Both the position numbers and the translations under genes were made by a program. A stretch of DNA of 32,000 nt from Staphylothermus marinus F1 (lineage in GTDB: Archaea; Thermoproteota; Thermoprotei_A; Sulfolobales; Desulfurococcaceae): contig NC_009033.1 of the NCBI RefSeq assembly GCF_000015945.1, positions 1,290,001 through 1,322,000 of the forward strand. Direction: 5' to 3'. Below are positions 6,008 through 29,058 of this stretch, one piece after another (the stretch's first letter is position 1; the number at the start of each line of letters is the position of its first letter). The notes under the pieces are model-generated. The model saw only the letters and a list, made by a program, of their open reading frames with translations, searched no databases and was not told the DNA's origin.

Positions 6008-7066
6008 ATGAAAATTCCCGAGAAAGAAGCAGGAATAATTGGTTGGGGATCATATATTCCTCGGTGGAGGCTTAAACTAGAAGAAATAACGAGAATATGG
6101 GGTTTTGCGCCAGAAACCCCTCATGGATTAATGGTTGAAGAAAAATCTGTGGCTGGAATCGATGAAGACGCTGTAACTCTTGGATGGGAAGCTGCTAAAA
6201 ACGCTTTAGCCAGAGCAGAAATTGATCCTAAAGAGATAGGTGCTGTCTGGTTCGGTACAGAATCAAAACCCTACGCAGTCAAACCTTCAGCAACAATTAT
6301 TGCTGAAGCATTGGGGATCACACCAGATACTATGGCTTCAGACCTAGAGTTCGCTTGTAGAGCAGCTAGTGAAGCATTGAGAATAAGTATTGCTACAATA
6401 GCATCTGGCATGGTTAAATATGCTTTAGTAATCGGTTCTGACACTGCACAAGCTAATCCTGGAGATGTACTCGAGTATACAGCATCGTCTGCAGCAACTG
6501 CTTTTATAACAGGTCCTGCAGACCAAGCTGTCGCAGTATTTGAGGCGAGCTATACCTATGTAACCGATACGCCTGATTTTTGGCGCAGAGCACATGTTCC
6601 CTACCCACTGCACGGGGAAGGATTCACTGGTGAACCAGCATATTTTCACCATATAATAAACGCTGTAAAGGGATTATTTGAGAAAACAGGGCTTAAACCA
6701 GATGATTTCGACTATGCAATATTTCATCAACCCAACGGTAAATTCCCATTAACTGTTGGAAGAAGACTTGGTTTTCCAAAAGAAAAAATATTACCAGGGC
6801 TCATTACACCATATATTGGCAATAGCTACAACTCATCAGCCCTAATAGGTTTATCCAGAGTTCTCGACATAGCTAAACCCGGGCAAAGAATATTATTGGC
6901 ACCATTCGGAAGCGGTGCTGGTAGCGATGCTTACAGTATTATTGTTACCGATAAAATACTTGAGAAACAAGATAAAGCACCGCGCGTCGACGACTACTTG
7001 GCTAGGAAACATTATATTGACTACGCACTATATGCAAAATATAGGGGCTTAATAAAGAGAATATGA
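6008..7066 (+). CDS. Archaeal-type hydroxymethylglutaryl-CoA synthase (thiolase-fold condensing enzyme)
   Basis: It is ~350 aa with the N-terminal '[14 protein letters not shown]', the active-site context '[10 protein letters not shown]' and 'FHQPNGKFP'. It is followed by a DUF35 gene, as in the archaeal thiolase/HMGCS/DUF35 arrangement. Confidence 0.85.
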
Positions 7067-7083
7067 TAGAGGATTGATCAACC

Positions 7084-7506
7084 ATGCAGTTCTCAATACC
7101 TAGATTTTGGCGTGAAAGAGCGTCTCATTATAGATTAAAAGCTGTTAAATGTAGAAAATGTGGAAGAATAAATTATCCTCCATCAAGCGTATGCAGATAT
7201 TGTGGCTCAAAGGATCTCGAGGAAATATATTTGGATAAAGAAAAAGCAAAACTTCTTACATGGACAATAATATATACCACACCTATAGGATTCGAGGATA
7301 AGAAACCAAGAATAATAGGAATAGTTGAAACAGTTGAAACACACGTCAAAATACTTGCACCAATAACTGATGTATTGCCCGAAGAACTTAAAGAGGGAAT
7401 TTTATTAGAACCCGTTCTAAGAAGAATAAATCAGGACCGGGAAGCAGGTCTAATCCATTACGGTATAGCTTATAGACCGGTGATAAAAACAATTGGGGGA
7501 ACGTAG
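7084..7506 (+). CDS. DUF35 zinc-ribbon/OB-fold protein (scaffold subunit of the archaeal thiolase-HMGCS complex)
   Basis: It is 140 aa with a four-Cys ribbon 'CRKCGRINYPPSSVCRYCGS' followed by an OB-fold-like beta region. It sits immediately downstream of HMGCS. Confidence 0.85.
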   Translation: MQFSIPRFWRERASHYRLKAVKCRKCGRINYPPSSVCRYCGSKDLEEIYLDKEKAKLLTWTIIYTTPIGFEDKKPRIIGIVETVETHVKILAPITDVLPEELKEGILLEPVLRRINQDREAGLIHYGIAYRPVIKTIGGT

Positions 7507-8587
7507 ATCTAGCATAAAAGATTTTTTATCAAAACTTAAATCATCTAAAAAGCCCTTAGAAGAAGTAGATGAACTAGTTGAAAACCAAAATATAGCTACA
7601 CTATTAAGAAGAAAAATCCTAGAAGAAAAACTAAATATATCGCTATCAGCAACTGGTTCATCCATATTAGACTTCGTGGAAACAGAGGGAAAAATATCAT
7701 ATAAATCCATAGGCGCCATCCAAATACCCGTGACAGTAATAGGTCCGTTAAAAATAGATGGATACTATATAAGGGACGAGAAATACATTCCTCTGGCATC
7801 AATTTATCCGGCACTAATGGAAGCAGTAGATTTAGGAGCTAAAATTATTGGAGATACACGTATACGAGTAAAAATAAATAGATGCTGGTTAAGATTATTC
7901 ACAGTTTCCCCTAGAAGAAGTCCAATTGATCTATGTAGAATAGTGGAATCAGAAATACAAGCTCTTAATGAATACGAGAAACTAAAAGTGCTATGTTTCG
8001 GTAGGGGTGCGGGACATATAATAAATACTGTTATGATAGGAGAAAATGGAATTTGCGAGACTCTCTCAAAATGGATTGAGAAAAACGATCTCAATGAATT
8101 ATTAATAAAAACTATAGGGTCTAAAATACCAGTGATTACTCCATACTTAGTATTTGATACCAGTATTAATACTGATATTCATAAAGGAAGATTTGGAGAC
8201 TACAATATCGAGCCTAATCTATTCCTCGAAGCATATAATGCATTAGAAGACTTAAAACCAATAGATAACTCATTACAACCCGTAATACTTGGTGTTCTAA
8301 CATCATTTTATTCATCCATAGGTATTAAACCAGAATATGCGCTCAGATCAGATATTCGCCAATACAATGTATTTACTAAATTTAGAAAAATAACTGTATC
8401 TATTAATTCAAGAATAATACTTCCTCTAACTATTAATATTAATGAATTATCGATTATGAATAAGGAGGTAGTAGGCATTCTTAAATTAGAATCTCTGAAA
8501 TCCAAATACTTGTCAGAGATAGCATCAGCGCTAGTATTAGTTGCTTATATAGGATTAATAGCTAGCATAGCTAAAGAATCTGTCTAA
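7493..8587 (+). CDS. HMG-CoA reductase (class I)-like protein lacking the catalytic motifs (probable pseudoenzyme or neofunctionalised paralogue)
   Basis: Collinear landmarks are 'IGAIQIPVTVIGPLKIDG' (cf. IGY.QIPVGVAGPL..DG), 'IPLASIYPALMEAVDLGAKII' (cf. PMATTEG.LVAS.NRG), 'GRGAGHIINTVMI' (cf. TGDAMGMNM) and 'EIASALVLVAYIGLIASIA' (cf. the LAGELSL.AALA helix). The catalytic residues are substituted. The TTG start overlaps the DUF35 stop by 14 nt. Confidence 0.65.
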   Translation: MGERRSSIKDFLSKLKSSKKPLEEVDELVENQNIATLLRRKILEEKLNISLSATGSSILDFVETEGKISYKSIGAIQIPVTVIGPLKIDGYYIRDEKYIPLASIYPALMEAVDLGAKIIGDTRIRVKINRCWLRLFTVSPRRSPIDLCRIVESEIQALNEYEKLKVLCFGRGAGHIINTVMIGENGICETLSKWIEKNDLNELLIKTIGSKIPVITPYLVFDTSINTDIHKGRFGDYNIEPNLFLEAYNALEDLKPIDNSLQPVILGVLTSFYSSIGIKPEYALRSDIRQYNVFTKFRKITVSINSRIILPLTININELSIMNKEVVGILKLESLKSKYLSEIASALVLVAYIGLIASIAKESV

Positions 8588-10146
8588 CCATTTAAGATTC
8601 TTGTCAATGCATAATATTCGCTTTCAAGAGTTTTCTCAACATATTCGTCCAGAACTATATCATCCCAGGGTAGGGGTTCACCATACCTATAACCATTGAA
8701 TAAATACGATGTACTATAACTATTATTTCTCAGAGCTCTTCTCCAACTACCGAGATCACCTCCGCTCAGACTCCACTCAACTAATACCTTGGAAATATTA
8801 TTATTAGCCAATGCAATACTGCCTTGTATCCATGCCCAATTCACATATAATGGTCTAGTATCAATTAATCCTTTGAGTTCTCCACGATAATATCGTACTA
8901 TATTTTTTGCTTTTTCAAGATCGATCATACCAAACCATTGAAAAACTGTTTTAGGTTTAGGAACTAATGGGTTAAGCGTAATAGTTAGCTTCAAATTCTT
9001 CTCTCTGATCTTCTTCGCTATTTTCCTTAAAGCATTTATATTTGTTCTATTATCATTTAAAGATTCATTTTTTACTCCGAAAATGATGTAAAGCTTTAAA
9101 TTAAAATTCTTGCTTATTATTTTATCTATTGATTCATTAACTATATTAAGATCAAAATATTTTCCATAAATTCTTTGAATAAATGTGTTGAATGATTCAG
9201 GAGCTATGGTTAAGTTTTTCTGCCCAAGATCCTTTACTAGTTCTAAGAAATAATCGTTAACATATTCAACCCTTAGGGAAGGTAGCGAACCTTTAATCTC
9301 GTTAGAAACAAGATATTCTAATAATTTAATATCTTCTTTTCCTCCGGGGAAAAGTAATGAATAAATAATAACGCGTTTTAGAAGATTAACTAATAAACCT
9401 CTATTTATTAGGTTAAATAATGTATTATTACTTCTCCTCCTATATGGTTTAAATAATCTTGATTCCATACAGAATCTGCACCAGAACCTGCACCCTCTAC
9501 TTACCTCTAATAAAAATCCACGTCCATATACTGGTTCGATCTCAGTATTTTGTATTTGTTTTATAGGATAGTAGGCTTTGTCAAGATTTTTAGTCCATTC
9601 TTTATATACTAGTTCATCGGTATAGTCTGGAGAATAAACATATTTATACGATGATATCTTTTCTAGAAAACCACTTTTATTATCTCTATAGGTTATGAAA
9701 TCATCTATTATTTTAGGTAATGTATCCTCTGCTTCACCTATAATGAAGGCGTCAATAAAATCTTCATATGGATGAGGATTTGCAATTACTCCAGGTCCAC
9801 CGGCAATAATCGGAATTCTTCTCTTATCTCTGTAAACTTCTAATCCGGAAGAATATAGTATCCGTAGTAATCCCGAAATGTTTGGTTCATAATGAATACT
9901 TGTTATTATTAGATCAAAATCTTTTAATGGACTATTTGTCTCAATACTTCTAGGATCCTCCTCGGTTCCAAACAAGTTTTTCAAATAAAATCTCTCGACA
10001 TAGACTTCATCATATAATTCGTTTAACATGTAATAAATTAGATGAGTAACTATACTGGAAAGCATGGATTCATATGTGCTGGGATAGACATATGCTATCC
10101 TAATTAGTTTTTTACTAATCTTTTTTCTAACAACATTATATTCCAA
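8584..10146 (-). CDS. Radical SAM protein with an N-terminal B12-binding-like (Rossmann) domain, uncharacterised family
   Basis: The motif 'SRGCRFWCRFC' is a CX3CX2C cluster, and its three Cys are the only cysteines in the protein. The N-terminus 'IRIAYVYPSTYE...IIAGGPGV' resembles the cobalamin-binding-type domain. A C-terminal 'LPWDDIVLD' motif is present. Confidence 0.8.
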   Translation of the reverse strand: MEYNVVRKKISKKLIRIAYVYPSTYESMLSSIVTHLIYYMLNELYDEVYVERFYLKNLFGTEEDPRSIETNSPLKDFDLIITSIHYEPNISGLLRILYSSGLEVYRDKRRIPIIAGGPGVIANPHPYEDFIDAFIIGEAEDTLPKIIDDFITYRDNKSGFLEKISSYKYVYSPDYTDELVYKEWTKNLDKAYYPIKQIQNTEIEPVYGRGFLLEVSRGCRFWCRFCMESRLFKPYRRRSNNTLFNLINRGLLVNLLKRVIIYSLLFPGGKEDIKLLEYLVSNEIKGSLPSLRVEYVNDYFLELVKDLGQKNLTIAPESFNTFIQRIYGKYFDLNIVNESIDKIISKNFNLKLYIIFGVKNESLNDNRTNINALRKIAKKIREKNLKLTITLNPLVPKPKTVFQWFGMIDLEKAKNIVRYYRGELKGLIDTRPLYVNWAWIQGSIALANNNISKVLVEWSLSGGDLGSWRRALRNNSYSTSYLFNGYRYGEPLPWDDIVLDEYVEKTLESEYYALTRILNG

Positions 10147-14667: not shown

Positions 14668-17301
14668 CTAAGATAGTTTTCTCAACCTAAGATACTCTAT
14701 TACTTTTTCATGGAGAAGCATCAGCAACTTTCTCATATCTTCCATTAATACAACATCACTATATCCATGAACAATTATACTGTGCGAGAACGGGCTCGGT
14801 ATATTATTAGGTCCCATCACGGATATTTTAATCTCACCTTTTCTAACATTATCTAATACTTCCTTAGCAGCTTCTATATGCATATAATCCTCTAGTATCT
14901 CCCTATATGTTTCCTTTAAAACAGGAAAATCGGGCAGATCCTCTATAGCCTTCAATAATTCCTCAGCATTTATTTGTAGTCTATGAACGCTTCTCTCCCT
15001 ATCTCTATACCTTCTTAGAATCATGAATGATCTTACTGCACAATGTCTAAATCTCCTTTTAAGCATTTCTGTTCTTTTAAGAACCTTCTTTAAAATATCC
15101 TCAATGTTTTCAGGCGTTAGTTTTTTGAACGCCAAAGCCCAATCAATGCTTTTCTTAATTGGAATTGTAAGCATGAAACCATTGTCTGTTACTGTTATCT
15201 TTACGTTCACACCTAATTCATTACTTATTATGTATGCGTAAGCCCTAGATAATGCGGCGTTAACTCTTCTACCAAATAGGCTGTGTACTATAATGTTTCT
15301 TCTCCCAGGCTCATCGAAGATCTCGATCATGATGAGTTTGTCGCTCGGAATTATTCCTCCAGTGAACAATAGTTGCTCCTTAATATAATCATATATTGAC
15401 TCAGCCGCATGCCTCTGCAATCTATACTCTTTTCTTAACCAATCAATAACTTGGCTTCGAGGAAGATTTATTATTTTTTCAGCGATAAGTCTTCTAAATT
15501 TTCCAATTTCTAGTGCTGAATCATAAGCTAACGGAAGCATTTCACTAAACCAGCTTGGAACAGTTGGTCTTGCCCCCTCAGCTGGCTTAACATATACTTT
15601 AAACCCCACACTCTTCACGTATTCGTATACGCGTCCACCTAGAACAAATAGATCCCCAGGAATTAAATATTCCACAAAAGCTTCTTCTAGATCCCCAACA
15701 TATTTTCCATCAATTGTGAATACATGTGCTTTGCTCTCGTCCGGTATCGTACCAATGTTTTGATAATAGATCATTCTCGCAGTTCTTTTTCTACCAAAGA
15801 CCCCCTCATTTTCGTCAAACCAGATCTTAGCATAGACTTTGGCATGTTCAAAATAGTCTCCATACTTGCCTGAAAGATATTTTAGAACATTAATATAATC
15901 ACTCCACGATAAAGTGTGGAAAGAATAACTTCTCTTAATTAATCTATACGCTTCTCTAATATCCCATTTCTTTTCAAGAGATAAACCTACAATGTGCTGT
16001 GCAAGCACATCTAGTGGATTTCTAGGTATACGTACCCTGTCAATTTTGTGTTGATATGCGGCTTTTACTAGGACAGTGCATTCAACAAGATCATCTCTAT
16101 CAACAACTATTACTCTCCCCTTACTTACTTGTCTAATATGATGACCCGCTCTTCCAATTCTTTGAAGGAGTCTTGAAACACTTTTCGGACTACTGAGTAG
16201 TACTACTAAGTCTATATATCCTATATCTATTCCTAGTTCTAAGCTTGTAGAGCTTACTATTACACGAAGCTTTCCTTGCTTAAGTTTTTCTTCAATTTCA
16301 AGGCGGACATCTCTACTCAAACTACTATGATGAGCTTCTATTTCATCTATATCCACGATTCTTTCTTTCTCCATGATCTTTCTAAGTTTATACACAACTC
16401 TCTCTGTAGCACTACGTGTATTAGTGAAGACTAATGTTGTTCTATGCTTTTTAATAAGTTTCACAAGCGTAGAATATATTGCATTATTTATTTCTTCTGC
16501 GGAAGCATGAACTAAGTCTTTAACAGGAGCAATAACTTTAATATCTATCGGCTTAGAAAATCTTGCGTCAACAATTAGGCAATCCCTAGGTTCGCCATCA
16601 TCTCTATATCCAACGAGAAACTTAGCCACCTCTACTAGAGGAGCTATTGTTGCACTCAATCCTATTCTTTGAAGCGGTTTTCCAACTAGGTTTTCTAGTC
16701 TTTCAATACTTAGACTTAAATGACTTCCTCTCTTACTATTCGCTAGTTCATGTATTTCATCTACGATTAGTATTCTAGTATTCTTTAATCGTTCCCTAAA
16801 CTTGGGAGCATTTAATGCAATTGCTAAGCTTTCAGGTGTTGTGATCAATATATGTGGTGGATCCCTTATCATTTTCTGTTTCTCATACGGGCTTGTATCA
16901 CTTGTTCTAACAGCCACTTTTATCTCTGGGAGATCAATACCATGGTTCTCAGCTACTTCTCTGATCCCCTGTATAGGTTTTAACAAGTTTCTACGCATAT
17001 CATTATTTAAAGCTCTTAAGGGGCTCACATAGACTACATAAACACCTTCAGGAAGTTTTCCCTCTTTTTCAGCCTTTGCATAAAGGTTATCAAGTATTCC
17101 TAGAAAAACAGCTAATGTTTTACCAGTACCTGTAGGACTTGATATAAGCACGTTGTGTCCATTTTTGATCAAAGGAATAGCCATTTTCTGGGGTGGTGTG
17201 AATTTCTTATATGTTTTACTAAACCATTCAGCAACATATGGTCTGAGCATAGATAATATTTTTCTATCACTATACTTGTGCTTGGCAAACTCTATTACCA
17301 A
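14668..17301 (-). CDS. lhr: Lhr-type superfamily 2 ATP-dependent DNA helicase (Lhr-core)
   Basis: Motif I is 'SSPTGTGKT', motif II is 'VDEIHELANSKRGSHLSLSIERL', motif III is 'LSAT' and motif VI is 'QRIGRAGH'. A long C-terminal winged-helix/Lhr-specific region follows. It has a TTG start, with an alternative ATG at 17250. Confidence 0.9.
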   Translation of the reverse strand: MVIEFAKHKYSDRKILSMLRPYVAEWFSKTYKKFTPPQKMAIPLIKNGHNVLISSPTGTGKTLAVFLGILDNLYAKAEKEGKLPEGVYVVYVSPLRALNNDMRRNLLKPIQGIREVAENHGIDLPEIKVAVRTSDTSPYEKQKMIRDPPHILITTPESLAIALNAPKFRERLKNTRILIVDEIHELANSKRGSHLSLSIERLENLVGKPLQRIGLSATIAPLVEVAKFLVGYRDDGEPRDCLIVDARFSKPIDIKVIAPVKDLVHASAEEINNAIYSTLVKLIKKHRTTLVFTNTRSATERVVYKLRKIMEKERIVDIDEIEAHHSSLSRDVRLEIEEKLKQGKLRVIVSSTSLELGIDIGYIDLVVLLSSPKSVSRLLQRIGRAGHHIRQVSKGRVIVVDRDDLVECTVLVKAAYQHKIDRVRIPRNPLDVLAQHIVGLSLEKKWDIREAYRLIKRSYSFHTLSWSDYINVLKYLSGKYGDYFEHAKVYAKIWFDENEGVFGRKRTARMIYYQNIGTIPDESKAHVFTIDGKYVGDLEEAFVEYLIPGDLFVLGGRVYEYVKSVGFKVYVKPAEGARPTVPSWFSEMLPLAYDSALEIGKFRRLIAEKIINLPRSQVIDWLRKEYRLQRHAAESIYDYIKEQLLFTGGIIPSDKLIMIEIFDEPGRRNIIVHSLFGRRVNAALSRAYAYIISNELGVNVKITVTDNGFMLTIPIKKSIDWALAFKKLTPENIEDILKKVLKRTEMLKRRFRHCAVRSFMILRRYRDRERSVHRLQINAEELLKAIEDLPDFPVLKETYREILEDYMHIEAAKEVLDNVRKGEIKISVMGPNNIPSPFSHSIIVHGYSDVVLMEDMRKLLMLLHEKVIEYLRLRKLS

Positions 17302-18847: not shown

Positions 18848-20230
18848 ATGTTAACCGAGGACGAATTGTCTAAACTAATAAATTATGGATTAGAGAAAGG
18901 CGCTGATTTTATCGATATAAGAATTGAAGACTATGTTGAAATCTCGATCACAATTCGTGATTATATAGTTGATGAAGTCTCTAGCACAATTATGACTGGT
19001 GCAGGTATCCGTGTATTATATAATGGTGGATTAGGCTTTGCATCAACAAATAATTTATCATGGGATAATATGGTTAAAACACTTGAATCAGCATTAAAAA
19101 TTGCTAAGCTTTTATCAAGTAAAACAAATGTTAAATTAACAATTCTTCCAGCGAGGCATGATATTGTTCAGTCTAAACTAGAGGAGGATCCTAGGAGTGT
19201 TTCTCCAGAACAAAAAATAAATGATTTATTGAAGCTTAGTAAAGAAGTACTTTCGAGAAACGAAGCCATTAAAACTATTACTACAAGATACAAAGACATT
19301 ACTGGTAGAACAATATATGTATCAAGCGAGGATCGCTTTATTGAGCAACACTATAACTATACATGGCTTTATTCATGGGTTACAGGTAGGGAAAACGATG
19401 TTGTAGCTTCTGCGAGAACAGAGCTAGGCACACGTAAGGGATACGTTATTTTTAATAAATATCCCCAGGAAGAAATTGCAGATACACTAGTTAAAAGAGT
19501 TCTTAACCAGTTAAAAGCCGTTACTCCAAAAGGAGGATTGTACCCAGCAATACTAGCTCCCGAAGTTGTTGGTGTCTTCGCTCACGAAGCATTTGGTCAT
19601 TTAGCAGAAGCAGACCTCACAGTTTCTGGCAGTATATTAGCTGATAAGCTAGGCAAAAAGATTGTTAGTGAACTAGTTACAATAGTTGATGACCCAACAA
19701 TACCGGATGCCTATGGTACATTCAAATATGATGATGAAGGAGTTGAGACAAGACCTGTTAAAATTGTTGAGGACGGAGTGCTTAAAGAATTAATGGTTGA
19801 TCGAAAATTTTCTGCAATGCTAAATATGAAACCAACTGGTAATGCTAGAGCCGAGGACTATAATGTTCCTCCTCTGATTAGGATGAGAACAACATATATT
19901 GCACCCCGCGATATGTCTTTAGAAGAACTACTTGAAGATATCAAGTATGGCTACTACCTAGTAAGTTTTCGTGGCGGACAAGCTAATTTAGATGGAACAT
20001 TTCAGGTAGGGATCCAGGAAGCATATGAGATTGTTAATGGAGAAATAGGAAGACCTGTTAGGAATATGAGTATCAGCGGAAACACTATTGATACACTAAA
20101 ATATGTGAGCGGAGTGGGTAAAGATTTTCAATACTTTTATGGTAGGTGTGGTAAGGGACAAACAGCTTATGTCTCAGATGGTGGACCCCATATTAGAGTT
20201 GATAAAATATTAATTGGAGGTGCTAAGTAA
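18848..20230 (+). CDS. tldD: TldD-family metalloprotease
   Basis: It is 460 aa with the zinc motif 'HEAFGH' (HExxxH) and the C-terminal 'GGPHIRVDKILIGG' typical of TldD. It is followed by a PmbA-like partner with a 1-nt overlap (TAATG). Confidence 0.88.
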   Translation: MLTEDELSKLINYGLEKGADFIDIRIEDYVEISITIRDYIVDEVSSTIMTGAGIRVLYNGGLGFASTNNLSWDNMVKTLESALKIAKLLSSKTNVKLTILPARHDIVQSKLEEDPRSVSPEQKINDLLKLSKEVLSRNEAIKTITTRYKDITGRTIYVSSEDRFIEQHYNYTWLYSWVTGRENDVVASARTELGTRKGYVIFNKYPQEEIADTLVKRVLNQLKAVTPKGGLYPAILAPEVVGVFAHEAFGHLAEADLTVSGSILADKLGKKIVSELVTIVDDPTIPDAYGTFKYDDEGVETRPVKIVEDGVLKELMVDRKFSAMLNMKPTGNARAEDYNVPPLIRMRTTYIAPRDMSLEELLEDIKYGYYLVSFRGGQANLDGTFQVGIQEAYEIVNGEIGRPVRNMSISGNTIDTLKYVSGVGKDFQYFYGRCGKGQTAYVSDGGPHIRVDKILIGGAK

Positions 20231-21582
20231 TGGTTCGTTCAGAAATAAACATATATGATTTAGGAATACTTGCTCTTCGCGAAGCTATTAGGCATGGAGC
20301 TGATGAAGCGGAAGTCTATATTGTTAAAACAAAGGAGATAGAATCTACGATACAAAATAATAAAATAACAGAGATGACAACAAGCAGGGATGGAGGAATA
20401 AGTTTACGCGTATCAATCGGTAAAAAACTCGGTTTCGCATCAACAAACAAGCTTATCTCAAACGAACTAGGGAAACTTGCTGAGAAAGCCGTAGCAATCG
20501 CTAAGGCTTCAAATGAGGATAAGGACTGGCCAGGATTTCCTCCCCCACAAGAATACAGTATGGTTAAAAAGATATTTTCTCCACAGCTAGCGGAAATAGA
20601 TGAGGATACAATTATTGAGAAAACAAAGCAATTATTAGAAAACGTATTAGTAGATAAAAGAATAACCATGGTTTATGGAGGCATCAGTGTTCATAGAACA
20701 AGTATTGCTGTACTAAACACTAATGGTTTATCCAATATACAACATTTAACAGCTAGCATAGTATTCACCGAAACACTAGCAACTGAGACTGGCAATACTA
20801 CACCAATCGTCACACTTGTTGATCACTCGAGAACCTCGATACCAAGCATTGACAACTTAGCTAAGAGAGCAGTTGAAGAAACACTTTCATGTCTGAAACC
20901 AGTCAAAATCGAACCAGGAAACTACCCTGTTATAATGACTGCTTCAGCTATTGAGAGCTTGTTCAACTATACATTATTTGAAGCTCTAAAAGGAGATAAT
21001 GTGGTTCGTGGTAGAAGTCCTTATAAGGGCAGAGAAAACGATAAAATAGCCTCGGAAAACCTTACATTAATCGATGATGGAACACTGAATCAGGGCCTCT
21101 TTACAGCATTATTTGATCACGAAGGAGTAAGTATGAAGAAGAAAATACTGATAGAAAACGGTATACTTAAACAATTCTTATTCAATCATTATTGGGCAAA
21201 AAGATATGGTGGGGAAAGCACCGGGAACGCTATGCGTAGCTCCTATAATTCTATTCCTAGAATATCTCCGACAAACATCTTGATAAAGCCGGGTGATACA
21301 AGCTTTGAAGAGATGATCAAGGAAACCAAGAAGGGACTACTAGTTAAAGGTCTACAAGGAGCGCATAGTAGTAACCCAGAAACGGGTGAATATAGTGTAG
21401 TAGCTACTCCTGCATGGCTCATTGATAACGGAGCAATAAAACCTGTTAGAAATGTTATGATTGCTGGAAAAATATATGATGAACTATTCAGAATAGATAT
21501 GATTGGTAGGAGAACTGAGAAATGGATACATGTATGGACACCGCCAATAAGGTTTTCGAATATAAGAGTAATACCTAGGTGA
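20230..21582 (+). CDS. pmbA: PmbA/TldE-family protein (non-catalytic partner of TldD)
   Basis: It is 450 aa with the same fold pattern ('FDHEGV', 'LLVKGLQGAHSSNPETGEYS') but no HExxxH. It is translationally coupled to tldD. Confidence 0.85.
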   Translation: MVRSEINIYDLGILALREAIRHGADEAEVYIVKTKEIESTIQNNKITEMTTSRDGGISLRVSIGKKLGFASTNKLISNELGKLAEKAVAIAKASNEDKDWPGFPPPQEYSMVKKIFSPQLAEIDEDTIIEKTKQLLENVLVDKRITMVYGGISVHRTSIAVLNTNGLSNIQHLTASIVFTETLATETGNTTPIVTLVDHSRTSIPSIDNLAKRAVEETLSCLKPVKIEPGNYPVIMTASAIESLFNYTLFEALKGDNVVRGRSPYKGRENDKIASENLTLIDDGTLNQGLFTALFDHEGVSMKKKILIENGILKQFLFNHYWAKRYGGESTGNAMRSSYNSIPRISPTNILIKPGDTSFEEMIKETKKGLLVKGLQGAHSSNPETGEYSVVATPAWLIDNGAIKPVRNVMIAGKIYDELFRIDMIGRRTEKWIHVWTPPIRFSNIRVIPR

Positions 21583-27126: not shown

Positions 27127-28119
27127 TTACTCCTCCAATGTTTCTTCAAATAATAGTTTTCCTAATCCCCCCTGTTTAATCTTCTCCAAAGCCCAACCGA
27201 ATCTCTCAAGTAGTACAAGGATAGCTGATTGAGGAGGAATAACTCCTTGCTCAGTAATTATTGCATCAATATATTCTGGCGGGGTAACATCGAATGCTGG
27301 ATTCAATACCTCTACATTTCTATGCTTATCTATCCATTCCTGCGGAACTATCTCTGTTGGAGACCTATACTCTATTGGTACTAGTTCTCCTATCAATGTA
27401 GCTGGTGAAAACTTATATGTTTCCGCTGCCACAAAAACTCTTACACGTGCTTCGTGAGCCGCTAACGCTACTTGGCTAGTTCCAATCTTATTAACAACAG
27501 CTCCATTACTAGCAATGGTATCTGCACCGACAACAACTTGGTCAACTTCGTTCATAATATATCTCACAGCACTATCAGGGATCTGAATAACCGGCACACC
27601 ATGCTCAGATAAGTGCTTATAAGTTATTCGTCCCTGATAAAACGGCCTAGTCTCCGTACTATAGACTTTCACAATTTTTCCCATCTTATAAGCTGTAATT
27701 ATTACTGATGCTGCAGCTGTGCTGTGACAATGAGTTAGAACAACAGCGTTATCCTTAATCCTCCTAGCACCGATCTCACCTATTTTCTTAATAGCATTCA
27801 GGCTTTCCTCAATAAATTTCTCAGCCGCATTAACAACAGCTTCTCTAAGCTCTTCCACATTTCCTGAAGCTCTACTTAAATTATACATTACATATATTAC
27901 AGCGTTTGGTAAACTAACCGCTGTAGGCCTTGTCGAGATTACTAGGTTAGCTATTCTAGACATATATTTTCGGAACTCCTCGGGATCGTTTGAGCCTTTA
28001 TAGTTTTCAGCCGCTATCTTCAATGCTTCAGCGGCAGCTCTAGCAATTTTACCAGCACCACGTATCCTCATAGTTTTTATTCCTTCAGCTATTTCTAATA
28101 CCTTAGATGGTATCTCCAT
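27127..28119 (-). CDS. eIF-2B alpha/beta/delta-family protein, ribose-1,5-bisphosphate isomerase type
   Basis: It is collinear with the Thermococcus enzyme as I recall it: 'IRGAGKIARAAA', 'TRPTAVSLPNA', 'VVLTHCHSTAA' (catalytic Cys context), 'TETRPFYQGR', 'VVVGADTIASNGAVVNKIGT' (catalytic Asp context) and 'NPAFDVTPPEYIDAIITE'. Confidence 0.75.
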   Translation of the reverse strand: MEIPSKVLEIAEGIKTMRIRGAGKIARAAAEALKIAAENYKGSNDPEEFRKYMSRIANLVISTRPTAVSLPNAVIYVMYNLSRASGNVEELREAVVNAAEKFIEESLNAIKKIGEIGARRIKDNAVVLTHCHSTAAASVIITAYKMGKIVKVYSTETRPFYQGRITYKHLSEHGVPVIQIPDSAVRYIMNEVDQVVVGADTIASNGAVVNKIGTSQVALAAHEARVRVFVAAETYKFSPATLIGELVPIEYRSPTEIVPQEWIDKHRNVEVLNPAFDVTPPEYIDAIITEQGVIPPQSAILVLLERFGWALEKIKQGGLGKLLFEETLEE

Positions 28120-28125
28120 AATTCC

Positions 28126-29058
28126 TCACCTCATCTTCTCCAATATTTCTTCAATACTAGGTATAGGAGGCGGGAAGCCGCCGTAAACCTGTCTAAGAAT
28201 AACAGGTACAGCTTGGGGAGCGAATAAACCATACTCAGTCGCTATAGCATCTATATAATTTGGCGGTGTTACATCGTATATGGGTGCTCTAGCATTATAG
28301 TTTTCTGGAAGAGTCTTACGGACTTCTTCATTCATCAAACTCCTCCAATCACCTTCCGGAAGTTCAATTAGTTCTCCATGTATTGTTTCATAGCTGAACT
28401 TGTAGAGAGGGGCAACTGCAAAGACTCTAACACGTGCTTCATTAGCTGTTAAGCAAAGTATACTTGTACCAATCTTTCCAACTAGAGCTCCATTAACAGC
28501 AATTGCTTCTGCTCCAATGAAAACTTTATCAACATTTTTCATGAAGAAACGAGCTGCTGAATCAACTATTAAATATGTTTTAACCCCAAGATCATCTAGA
28601 TAAGAAGCTGTCTCCAATCCTTCCATGCCAGGCCTAGATTCTAAAACATACACACTATACTTAATGCCTTCGTCAACGAGGATCTTAAACATTCTCCTAA
28701 CACATAAACTGTTACTAATAGTCATCAATACTTCTCCATCAACTACTCTCTTAGCAGCAATATTTGCTGCATCCCAGCAAGCCTTATCATATTTCTCACG
28801 TAGCTCCAAGATTTTTTCCTTTAACCCCACAAATTCATTCTCAACAAAATGATGCCCTATTTCTCTCAAAAGATTCCATGAAGCCATACTTGCAGGTCTT
28901 TCTCTCTCTAAACTATTAACAATGCTTTTATAGGATTTAACAAATCCTTCACGATCACCTCGCTCAACAATATTGAGCAGTCTATTAATAATTGTAAAAG
29001 CATATTCTGTACCAGTTGATCGCTTTGCATAACCATGTTTTAAAAGCTCTTCAAACAA
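28126..29058 (-). CDS. eIF-2B-family paralogue lacking the isomerase Cys/Asp pair (regulatory-type aIF-2B subunit-like)
   Basis: It has the same fold motifs ('ERPASMASWN', 'LESRPGMEG', 'APIYDVTPPNYIDAIATE'). However, it reads 'VLMTISNSLC' in place of THCHS and 'VFIGAEAIAVNGALVGKIGT' in place of GAD. It has a TTG start, and its stop lies 6 nt before the next ATG. Confidence 0.7.
   Translation of the reverse strand: MFEELLKHGYAKRSTGTEYAFTIINRLLNIVERGDREGFVKSYKSIVNSLERERPASMASWNLLREIGHHFVENEFVGLKEKILELREKYDKACWDAANIAAKRVVDGEVLMTISNSLCVRRMFKILVDEGIKYSVYVLESRPGMEGLETASYLDDLGVKTYLIVDSAARFFMKNVDKVFIGAEAIAVNGALVGKIGTSILCLTANEARVRVFAVAPLYKFSYETIHGELIELPEGDWRSLMNEEVRKTLPENYNARAPIYDVTPPNYIDAIATEYGLFAPQAVPVILRQVYGGFPPPIPSIEEILEKMR

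Follow-up and report, generated by a model that had tools for sequence, protein, structure and literature searches.

The mevalonate pathway supplies all archaeal membrane lipids, and HMG-CoA reductase (HMGR, EC 1.1.1.34; HMG-CoA stands for 3-hydroxy-3-methylglutaryl-coenzyme A) is regarded as its committed and indispensable step. Why, then, should an archaeon keep, directly behind the genes for HMG-CoA formation, an HMGR homologue from which the catalytic residues have gone? The question is raised by a stretch of 32,000 nucleotides of the Staphylothermus marinus F1 genome (contig NC_009033.1, positions 1,290,001 to 1,322,000, forward strand; hereafter the window), in which the open reading frame (ORF) at 7493-8587 (+) corresponds to Smar_1337 (ABN70428.1, UniProt A3DP68), a protein annotated as hypothetical. 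Literature searches brought up no work on Smar_1337 or on archaeal HMGRs that have degenerated, nor any on the HMGR of Staphylothermus or Desulfurococcales, and the S. marinus genome paper makes no mention of HMGR or thiolase. The analysis presented here indicates that Smar_1337 most probably derives from an essential enzyme of the pathway, whose own operon slot it occupies as a conserved protein devoid of catalysis, and that it represents one case of a recurrent phenomenon.

A class I HMGR homologue lacking the catalytic residues

Sequence searches recognise Smar_1337 as an HMGR in its first ~120 residues only. PF00368, the sole Pfam family passing its cutoff, scores 37.8 bits (cutoff 27; E 1.5e-9) over residues 39-120, TIGR00533 reaches 55.5 bits over residues 10-120 against an equivalog cutoff of 441.8, and PDB entry 6hr7 is matched with an E value of 1.5e-11, while no new cofactor motif is recognisable. 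Over these N-terminal ~120 residues the protein is about 43% identical to canonical HMGRs, represented by 6HR7 of Methanothermococcus thermolithotrophicus and by the operon HMGRs of Desulfurococcaceae and Acidilobaceae; it has the fold, the operon slot and the tight coupling in common with them, and is about 50 residues shorter. Comparison of the Smar_1337 family with a template of 12 canonical class I HMGRs in hhalign gave a probability of 99.6% and an E value of 5.5e-25 over 342 aligned columns, with residues 6-361 placed against positions 4-398 of 417. The AlphaFold2 monomer model of Smar_1337 has a predicted local distance difference test score (pLDDT) of 80.7 and a predicted template modelling score (pTM) of 0.78, and all 50 PDB matches listed by Foldseek for this model are HMGRs, the best being 6hr7_B (E 6.9e-14, about 410 columns, TM 0.5). 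Profile alignment and predicted structure both argue for homology of Smar_1337 to class I HMGR over the entire length, far beyond chance.

The catalytic tetrad of the enzyme (Glu559, Lys691, Asp767 and His866 in human numbering) is kept in archaeal HMGR (PMC11948995). In Smar_1337 all four positions are replaced or deleted (Table 1). Tyr105, at the position of the catalytic Glu (human E559), is invariant in all 13 family members, and Lys279, at the position of human D767, lies in a motif where G277, K279, P280, E281 and Y282 are all invariant. The loop SGNxCxDKK, which holds the catalytic Lys (human K691), is affected by a 13-column deletion across SGNxCxD in the hhalign alignment, and the leftover positions are variable. 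The C-terminal flap with the catalytic His (human H866) is missing, as Smar_1337 stops at residue 364, about 10 residues short, and the hhalign alignment ends at template position 398, ahead of the AHxxLGR motif. In GAGHIIN, the columns matching the Asp and the first Met of DAMGMN vary within the family; the GGGT columns of TININE-L-SIMNKE are also variable, while its N323 and E325 are invariant. The alignment further shows that ENxIG has become YKxIG and that NRG has become (D/E)LG, and the HMG-binding positions (the Arg of NRG, the DKK loop, the Lys of GRGK and the His of NAH) are mostly replaced or deleted. Of what characterises a functional class I HMGR, Smar_1337 has the fold and the homology, and lacks a score above the equivalog cutoff, the tetrad and both NADPH motifs. 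We infer that Smar_1337 probably has no HMG-CoA reductase activity. The original prediction for this locus had described a 364-aa ORF with a TTG start and a 14-nt overlap with the stop of the preceding DUF35 gene, which followed the class I HMGR catalytic domain over its whole length with its catalytic landmarks substituted; the ORF is present in this form, the homology does extend over the full length, and each of the substitutions that it listed recurs in the hhalign alignment.

Conservation in the family is highest in residues 52-79, a stretch which includes the former ENxIG motif and in which residues 53-76 have a pLDDT below 50 in the monomer model. Because the stretch is at the same time the most conserved and of low pLDDT in a monomer, it is read as an interface segment, and the model suggests that it may become ordered only at an interface.

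Smar_1337 has four cysteines only (Cys131, 148, 168 and 188; codons 7883-7885, 7934-7936, 7994-7996 and 8054-8056), which are conserved in the family and are all found in the former NADPH-binding small domain. An obligatory metal site made up of these four was ruled out, as the family protein P0003 is without Cys131 and Cys188. The joint loss of these two in P0003 suggests that the cysteines may pair as disulfides (131-188 and 148-168) instead of binding a metal.

The operon slot of the canonical enzyme

The first gene of the operon encodes an HMG-CoA synthase (HMGCS) with 574.8 bits to NCBIfam NF003274 (cutoff 244) and 524.6 bits to TIGR00748, scores by which its product is unambiguously predicted to be an archaeal HMG-CoA synthase, and its ATG is preceded by GGTG at 7 nt. 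The second gene encodes a DUF35 protein, which we take to be the scaffold subunit of the archaeal thiolase/HMGCS complex. The last 14 nt of the DUF35 gene (stop codon 7504-7506) are shared with Smar_1337, which begins with TTG. Downstream, a B12/radical-SAM gene converges on Smar_1337 with its end at 8584, and the operon therefore consists of three genes, with Smar_1337 predicted to be co-transcribed and translationally coupled with HMGCS and DUF35. The gene order and the coupling are kept at all family loci, including that of S. hellenicus.

What this slot normally contains is apparent from the 80 best-scoring Thermoprotei loci of a genome scan with a mixed alignment of canonical and degenerate proteins, a sample which does not include the Smar_1337 locus itself. 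The order HMGCS-thiolase-DUF35-canonical HMGR is present in 39 of these loci and HMGCS-canonical HMGR in five, and the layout of Staphylothermus, HMGCS-DUF35-canonical HMGR with no thiolase, in four metagenome-assembled genomes (MAGs) of Desulfurococcaceae (loci L038, L041, L043 and L065). The operon thus normally ends with HMGR. Canonical HMGRs are separated from the upstream gene by a median gap of 0 nt (n=51) and so are as tightly coupled as Smar_1337, for which reason its coupling is considered inherited. In Acidilobaceae, the canonical protein P0211, with all motifs, is found in the same slot as the degenerate P0027 and P0189 of sister genomes, and P0318 and P0189 share the slot in different species. 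Indeed, the order HMGCS-thiolase-DUF35-X-Rpb6-M50 peptidase-topoisomerase is common to loci in which X is canonical (L010, L011, L012) and to loci in which it is degenerate (L006, L013, L014). Since canonical and degenerate proteins hold the identical syntenic slot in sister genomes, gene order identifies Smar_1337 as the operon HMGR's positional orthologue, which was remodelled where it stands and is not an added copy.

The sequences of the three gene products are consistent with this. Identity to S. marinus HMGCS is 84-86% within the family and 80-82% in its nearest outside relatives, the loci L052, L065 and L043, and for DUF35 the corresponding figures are 68-83% and about 60%. Third-gene proteins are 46-61% identical to Smar_1337 over the full length in the family and about 43% outside it, over the first ~115 residues only; across the family boundary HMGCS identity thus falls smoothly, while that of the third-gene protein jumps. 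In a neighbour-joining tree of HMGCS, which carries no bootstrap support, the family is sister to the Desulfurococcaceae loci L052, L065 and L043.

These comparisons alter the original prediction in several respects. It had regarded Smar_1337 as a paralogue embedded in the mevalonate entry module, which is at odds with a slot that normally holds HMGR. Nor is it supported that the protein takes the place of the thiolase, as the operon thiolase normally sits between HMGCS and DUF35 and is likewise absent from L041, L043 and L065, with canonical HMGR. Its statement that the window is devoid of thiolase agrees with a Pfam scan of 25 of the 28 window ORFs of at least 120 aa, which revealed neither a thiolase nor a second HMGR (the other three, of 125-141 aa, each overlap scanned ORFs). 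As to the proposed co-translation with HMGCS and DUF35, coupling is supported by the overlap and by a Shine-Dalgarno-like motif, whereas the overlap itself is nothing special given the median gap of canonical HMGRs.

Some further operon and standalone HMGRs deviate from the canonical pattern in other ways. In Thermocladium modestius JCM 10088 (L100, BBBF01000028.1) the operon HMGR is divided into three ORFs (134, 101 and 93 aa) which jointly contain the canonical motifs, and the split reflects either a pseudogene with frameshifts or mistakes in the draft assembly. The otherwise canonical operon HMGR of the uncultured Desulfurococcaceae MAG at L038 reads ATTDG (PLATTDGA), with Asp for the catalytic Glu, and by its sequence may be an active variant or the very first step of degeneration. 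Standalone canonical HMGRs of 409-412 aa with ATHEG in place of ATTEG, unlinked to HMGCS and DUF35, occur at L088, L091, L097 (Ignicoccus pacificus) and L098.

Conservation and selection

The Smar_1337 family comprises 13 homologue clusters at 90% identity (2 at 50% identity), which are 46-100% identical, 359-368 aa long and conserved over the full length, with 74 invariant columns. It is well delimited, as in a profile search that covered 1.84 billion proteins exhaustively the score drops from 554 to 114 bits past the family. Members are found in S. marinus and S. hellenicus, that is, in both cultured Staphylothermus species, and in Staphylothermus sp. and Desulfurococcales MAGs. All family loci read HMGCS-DUF35-X, but because the entire neighbourhood is syntenic this conservation says little on its own. 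One member of the P0004 cluster (90% level), P0336 (RKX82855.1), is deposited as 'Spirochaetes bacterium' on a contig of 3.5 kb, almost certainly a mis-binned archaeal contig.

In the comparison of loci L034 and L035 (synonymous divergence, dS, 0.26), the ratio of nonsynonymous to synonymous substitutions (dN/dS) is 0.042 for the slot-3 protein, 0.027 for HMGCS and 0.111 for DUF35, and pairs of canonical HMGRs of like divergence give 0.039-0.057. Between S. marinus and S. hellenicus, the whole Smar_1337-type protein has a dN/dS of 0.116, with neighbouring genes at 0.047-0.206. Residues 1-125 are the most constrained part, with 0.024 versus 0.053 for residues 126-364 in L034/L035 and 0.063 versus 0.155 in S. 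marinus/S. hellenicus. These ratios indicate that Smar_1337 is functional and under purifying selection like the canonical HMGRs, and not decaying.

The positions which are conserved in the family but differ from canonical HMGR are Y70, S103-I-Y-P106, L114, Y248, K279, E281, R285 and N323. Unlike these re-fixed pocket positions, neither the NADPH-site motifs nor the DKK loop has been maintained in the family, both being variable or deleted. Homology to an enzyme family, missing catalytic residues and purifying selection, the last setting it apart from a pseudogene, are among the features of a pseudoenzyme. In Staphylothermus, including two cultured and genome-sequenced species, purifying selection of an enzyme-like kind appears to have preserved a dead copy whose pocket has become fixed anew.

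Recurrent degeneration in Thermoprotei

The next-best matches of the exhaustive search, past the family, are not canonical HMGRs but other degenerate HMGR-like proteins of Thermoprotei and Acidilobaceae MAGs, with motifs such as PLATIKG, PLATTRK, PIATTTK, PLALIDI and others. They directly follow mevalonate entry genes in unrelated neighbourhoods, in the order HMGCS-thiolase-DUF35-X (L006, L008) or HMGCS-X (L007, L009). The carriers are Acidilobaceae, Desulfurococcaceae and other Thermoprotei MAGs and account for at least five further independently derived proteins. Like Smar_1337, these proteins occupy the same slot, have lost the Glu of TTEG, DAMGMN and the Lys of DKK, and keep the N-terminal third; the His flap is lost as well, except in P0015. 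They differ from Smar_1337 in their replacement residues and in identity, which is below 30% outside the N-terminus, and several retain GQD or LPTQRE. In the HMGCS neighbour-joining tree, degenerate slot-3 proteins appear at six or more positions, each beside a canonical sister, a pattern indicating that the operon HMGR has lost its catalytic residues at least six times independently in Thermoprotei.

An early stage of such loss is seen at L052, where the N-terminus is nearly identical to that of the canonical protein at L065, while the protein reads GDTIGPN, SSDAYFDKK, YNIN and GQE and has no His flap. The dN/dS of this pair is 0.059 for residues 1-118 and 0.31 for residues 119-245, which points to constraint having been relaxed only in the former catalytic body.

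Some degenerate HMGR-like proteins are annotated as HMG-CoA reductase (e.g. RLG81190.1). Degenerate operon proteins should not carry this annotation, as one Joint Genome Institute (JGI) record already does.

Possible functions of Smar_1337

A scaffold or regulator, or an enzyme of new chemistry, are both plausible identities for a protein of this sequence. The reading preferred here, to which we give an even chance, is that Smar_1337 is not a reductase but a pseudoenzyme-type partner, either of the HMG-CoA-forming module or of the real reductase, and that HMG-CoA is reduced by some other enzyme. The operon HMGR would have ceased to be a reductase at the base of the Staphylothermus clade, losing its catalytic tetrad, its NADPH-binding motifs, the loop with the Lys and the flap at the C-terminus. 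The HMGR fold would have been kept, together with a strongly constrained, oligomer-forming N-terminal third that matches the dimer-interface region, while former substrate-pocket positions would have been re-fixed to new invariant residues in a pocket without cofactor. Made from one transcript with HMGCS and DUF35 and translationally coupled to them, the protein may organise or regulate flux by binding HMG-CoA, CoA or mevalonate as a metabolite of the pathway, or else a further subunit. The reduction of HMG-CoA would fall to another enzyme, with its gene at some other place in the genome. Since HMGCS still scores highly as an equivalog, HMG-CoA is presumably still made and needs a consumer.

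Several observations weigh against the pseudoenzyme partner. The physical association of Smar_1337 with HMGCS and DUF35 is putative, and operon coupling that is inherited does not by itself show a new role in a complex. The family-conserved columns do coincide with the canonical-conserved columns (odds ratio 2.8, p 5e-5), although this is in part expected from the constraints of the fold alone, and the re-fixed pocket residues could equally mean a new catalytic activity. Also, a second HMGR was not found in any degenerate-bearing genome among the best 80 loci: none of the eight degenerate-bearing species representatives has a second pattern-matching locus there, which is weak negative evidence, and no assembly occurs twice among the 80. 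Canonical and degenerate proteins do not co-occur in NCBI accession blocks, those of Acidilobaceae coming from different MAGs. Homologue searches queried with Smar_1337 or with the profile of its family gave the 13 family clusters and no others. The best 120 of 7017 matches to an Acidilobus HMGR query (down to 63% identity) include none named Staphylothermus, which at that depth carries no information. It is unlikely, in our estimate, that Staphylothermus and at least five other Thermoprotei lineages are devoid of any canonical class I or II HMGR and make mevalonate with a non-homologous, as yet unrecognised reductase, or with the remodelled protein helped by a novel partner or cofactor. If such genomes did lack a canonical reductase, this would explain the repeated disabling of an 'essential' HMGR and render the finding much more important.

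The same pocket residues are the starting point for the view that Smar_1337 is a neofunctionalised enzyme, performing an NADPH-independent reaction on HMG-CoA, a related CoA-thioester or a mevalonate-pathway intermediate with a new Tyr/Lys/Glu/Arg set in the old pocket. Old active-site positions are fixed as invariant Y70, Y105, Y248, D258, K279, E281, Y282, R285, N323 and E325, purifying selection acts on the remodelled body (dN/dS 0.053 and 0.155), and a repurposed archaeal HMGR homologue has a precedent in FcrA, an HMGR-like fatty acyl-CoA reductase of Halobacteriales and bacteria (PMC11948995). However, FcrA retains the tetrad and the NADPH site, whereas Smar_1337 is without everything required for hydride transfer and shows no new cofactor motif; the linkage conserved across lineages is to HMGCS, DUF35 and thiolase only, with no other plausible pathway gene; and other lineages which lost catalysis have settled on different residues, arguing against one shared new chemistry. 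We consider a new enzymatic function unlikely. That Smar_1337 should still be the sole HMG-CoA reductase of the cell, with a radically rebuilt site and perhaps another reductant, would account for its place in the ancestral HMGR slot, for the intact HMGCS upstream, whose product needs a consumer, for the failure of any other HMGR to appear in degenerate-bearing genomes (best 80 loci, accession blocks) and for purifying selection as strong as on canonical HMGRs. It is nonetheless very improbable, considering that the four catalytic residues, both nucleotide motifs and most HMG-binding positions are replaced or deleted, that the NADPH-site columns vary within the family, and that independent lineages (L052, P0014-P0027) have lost different subsets of residues, which fits a release from catalytic constraint.

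A pre-existing second copy would most easily explain the loss of catalysis, and the separation of the family in the exhaustive search (554 to 114 bits) would suit a true extra paralogue, an old HMGR duplicate inserted after DUF35 with the canonical HMGR always elsewhere. This is rendered quite improbable by the closest relatives by HMGCS (L065, L043, L041 and L038), which have a canonical HMGR in exactly that slot of a thiolase-less operon, by L052, an in-place intermediate, and by the lack of any genome with two copies among the 80 loci. The relaxed body of the early-stage protein at L052 (0.31 against 0.06 in residues 1-118) is what a functionless relic on its way to being lost would show, but for Smar_1337 this is extremely improbable and effectively refuted by the selection data: the ORF is uninterrupted and of uniform length (359-368 aa) throughout 13 clusters, which diverge to 46% identity and share 74 invariant columns, dN/dS is 0.04-0.12, and both cultured Staphylothermus species have retained the gene. 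The findings open two questions to experiment in a culturable organism, whether HMG-CoA reduction is performed by a second HMGR or by something new, and whether a structural or regulatory role of HMGR in a mevalonate-entry metabolon has outlived catalysis.

Features and neighbouring genes

The coordinates of the features discussed are collected in Table 1, together with genes further along the window. The B12-binding radical SAM gene (PF19864 and PF04055; TIGR03960-like at 176 bits, under the cutoff) overlaps Smar_1337 tail to tail by 4 nt, a pairing kept family-wide, though only as part of the general synteny. The Lhr-type helicase of S. marinus is 877 aa long and that of S. hellenicus 881 aa, and in related MAGs the protein has 1020-1026 aa and contains an intein (PF14890; L001 15025-17107, L004 14842-17104); from these length differences and PF14890 it follows that the intein is present or absent within the Staphylothermus clade. 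Two pairs of adjacent paralogues are also encoded, one of the IF-2B family (eIF2B or sugar-phosphate isomerase type) and one of TldD/PmbA metallopeptidases.

Table 1. Coordinates of the features of the Smar_1337 locus and of neighbouring genes, in window positions.
Feature	Position	Strand	Basis
HMG-CoA synthase (HMGCS), Smar_1335, operon gene 1	6008..7066	+	NF003274, TIGR00748
DUF35 / ChsH2-type zinc-ribbon plus OB-fold protein, Smar_1336	7084..7506	+	Pfam PF12172 (E 1e-12), PF01796 (E 9e-12)
GGTGAT, Shine-Dalgarno-like motif inside the DUF35 coding sequence, 8 nt before the Smar_1337 TTG	7479..7484	+	Read from sequence
Smar_1337 (364 aa), homologue of class I HMGR with degenerate catalytic site; closes the operon as gene 3	7493..8587	+	
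Residues 1-125, N-domain and first L-domain segment, most constrained part	7493..7867	+	Pfam/TIGRFAM/PDB matches confined here
Residues 52-79, SATGSSILDF...SYKSIGAIQIP, most conserved stretch of the family; replaces ENxIG (Glu to Tyr70)	7646..7729	+	Invariant columns
ASIYP (residues 102-106), replaces ATTEG; catalytic Glu to Tyr105	7796..7810	+	HMMER, hhalign
GAGHIIN (residues 172-178), replaces NADPH-site GDAMGMN	8006..8026	+	hhalign
GIKPEY (residues 277-282), replaces GQDxAQ; catalytic Asp to Lys279	8321..8338	+	hhalign
TININE-L-SIMNKE (residues 313-325), replaces TVGGGT-x-LPTQRE; Gly-rich loop gone	8429..8467	+	hhalign
B12-binding radical SAM gene	8584..10146	-	PF19864, PF04055
Lhr-type helicase	14668..17301	-	
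TldD/PmbA metallopeptidase paralogue	18848..20230	+	
TldD/PmbA metallopeptidase paralogue	20230..21582	+	
IF-2B-family paralogue	27127..28119	-	
IF-2B-family paralogue	28126..29058	-	
Other degenerate operon HMGRs: P0014-P0018, P0020, P0022, P0025, P0027 (loci L006-L009, L013, L051, L052, L058, L071, L106)			

Comparison with known systems

To our knowledge, FcrA is the only repurposed archaeal HMGR homologue that has been described. It resembles Smar_1337, as read here, in being an archaeal class I HMGR homologue that no longer reduces HMG-CoA, and as such is a precedent for functional divergence (PMC11948995). The two differ in that FcrA retains Glu559, Lys691, Asp767 and His866 as well as the C-terminal helix and is an NADPH-dependent four-electron reductase (PMC11948995), whereas Smar_1337 is without these features. 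FcrA, a second copy in linkage with genes for wax esters, has an extra N-terminal lipid-binding (Lad) domain (PMC11948995), while Smar_1337 has no N-terminal extension, aligning from residue 6 to canonical residue 4, and is located in the mevalonate operon.

With two of the three subunits of the thiolase/HMGCS/DUF35 complex, Smar_1337 is predicted to be co-transcribed and coupled; in Staphylothermus, as in its Desulfurococcaceae relatives, the operon has no thiolase gene. The archaeal complex was reportedly described by Vogeli et al. in PNAS in 2018, and we know of no HMGR or HMGR-like subunit described in it. A further parallel is offered by the 'prozymes' of trypanosomatids, pseudoenzyme partners of active paralogues of S-adenosylmethionine decarboxylase (AdoMetDC) and deoxyhypusine synthase. 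For the prozymes the active partner and the heteromer have been demonstrated, whereas for Smar_1337 both are putative. As in the prozymes, what appears to have been preserved in Smar_1337 is a dead homologue of an oligomeric enzyme with active sites at the subunit interface, maintained under purifying selection.

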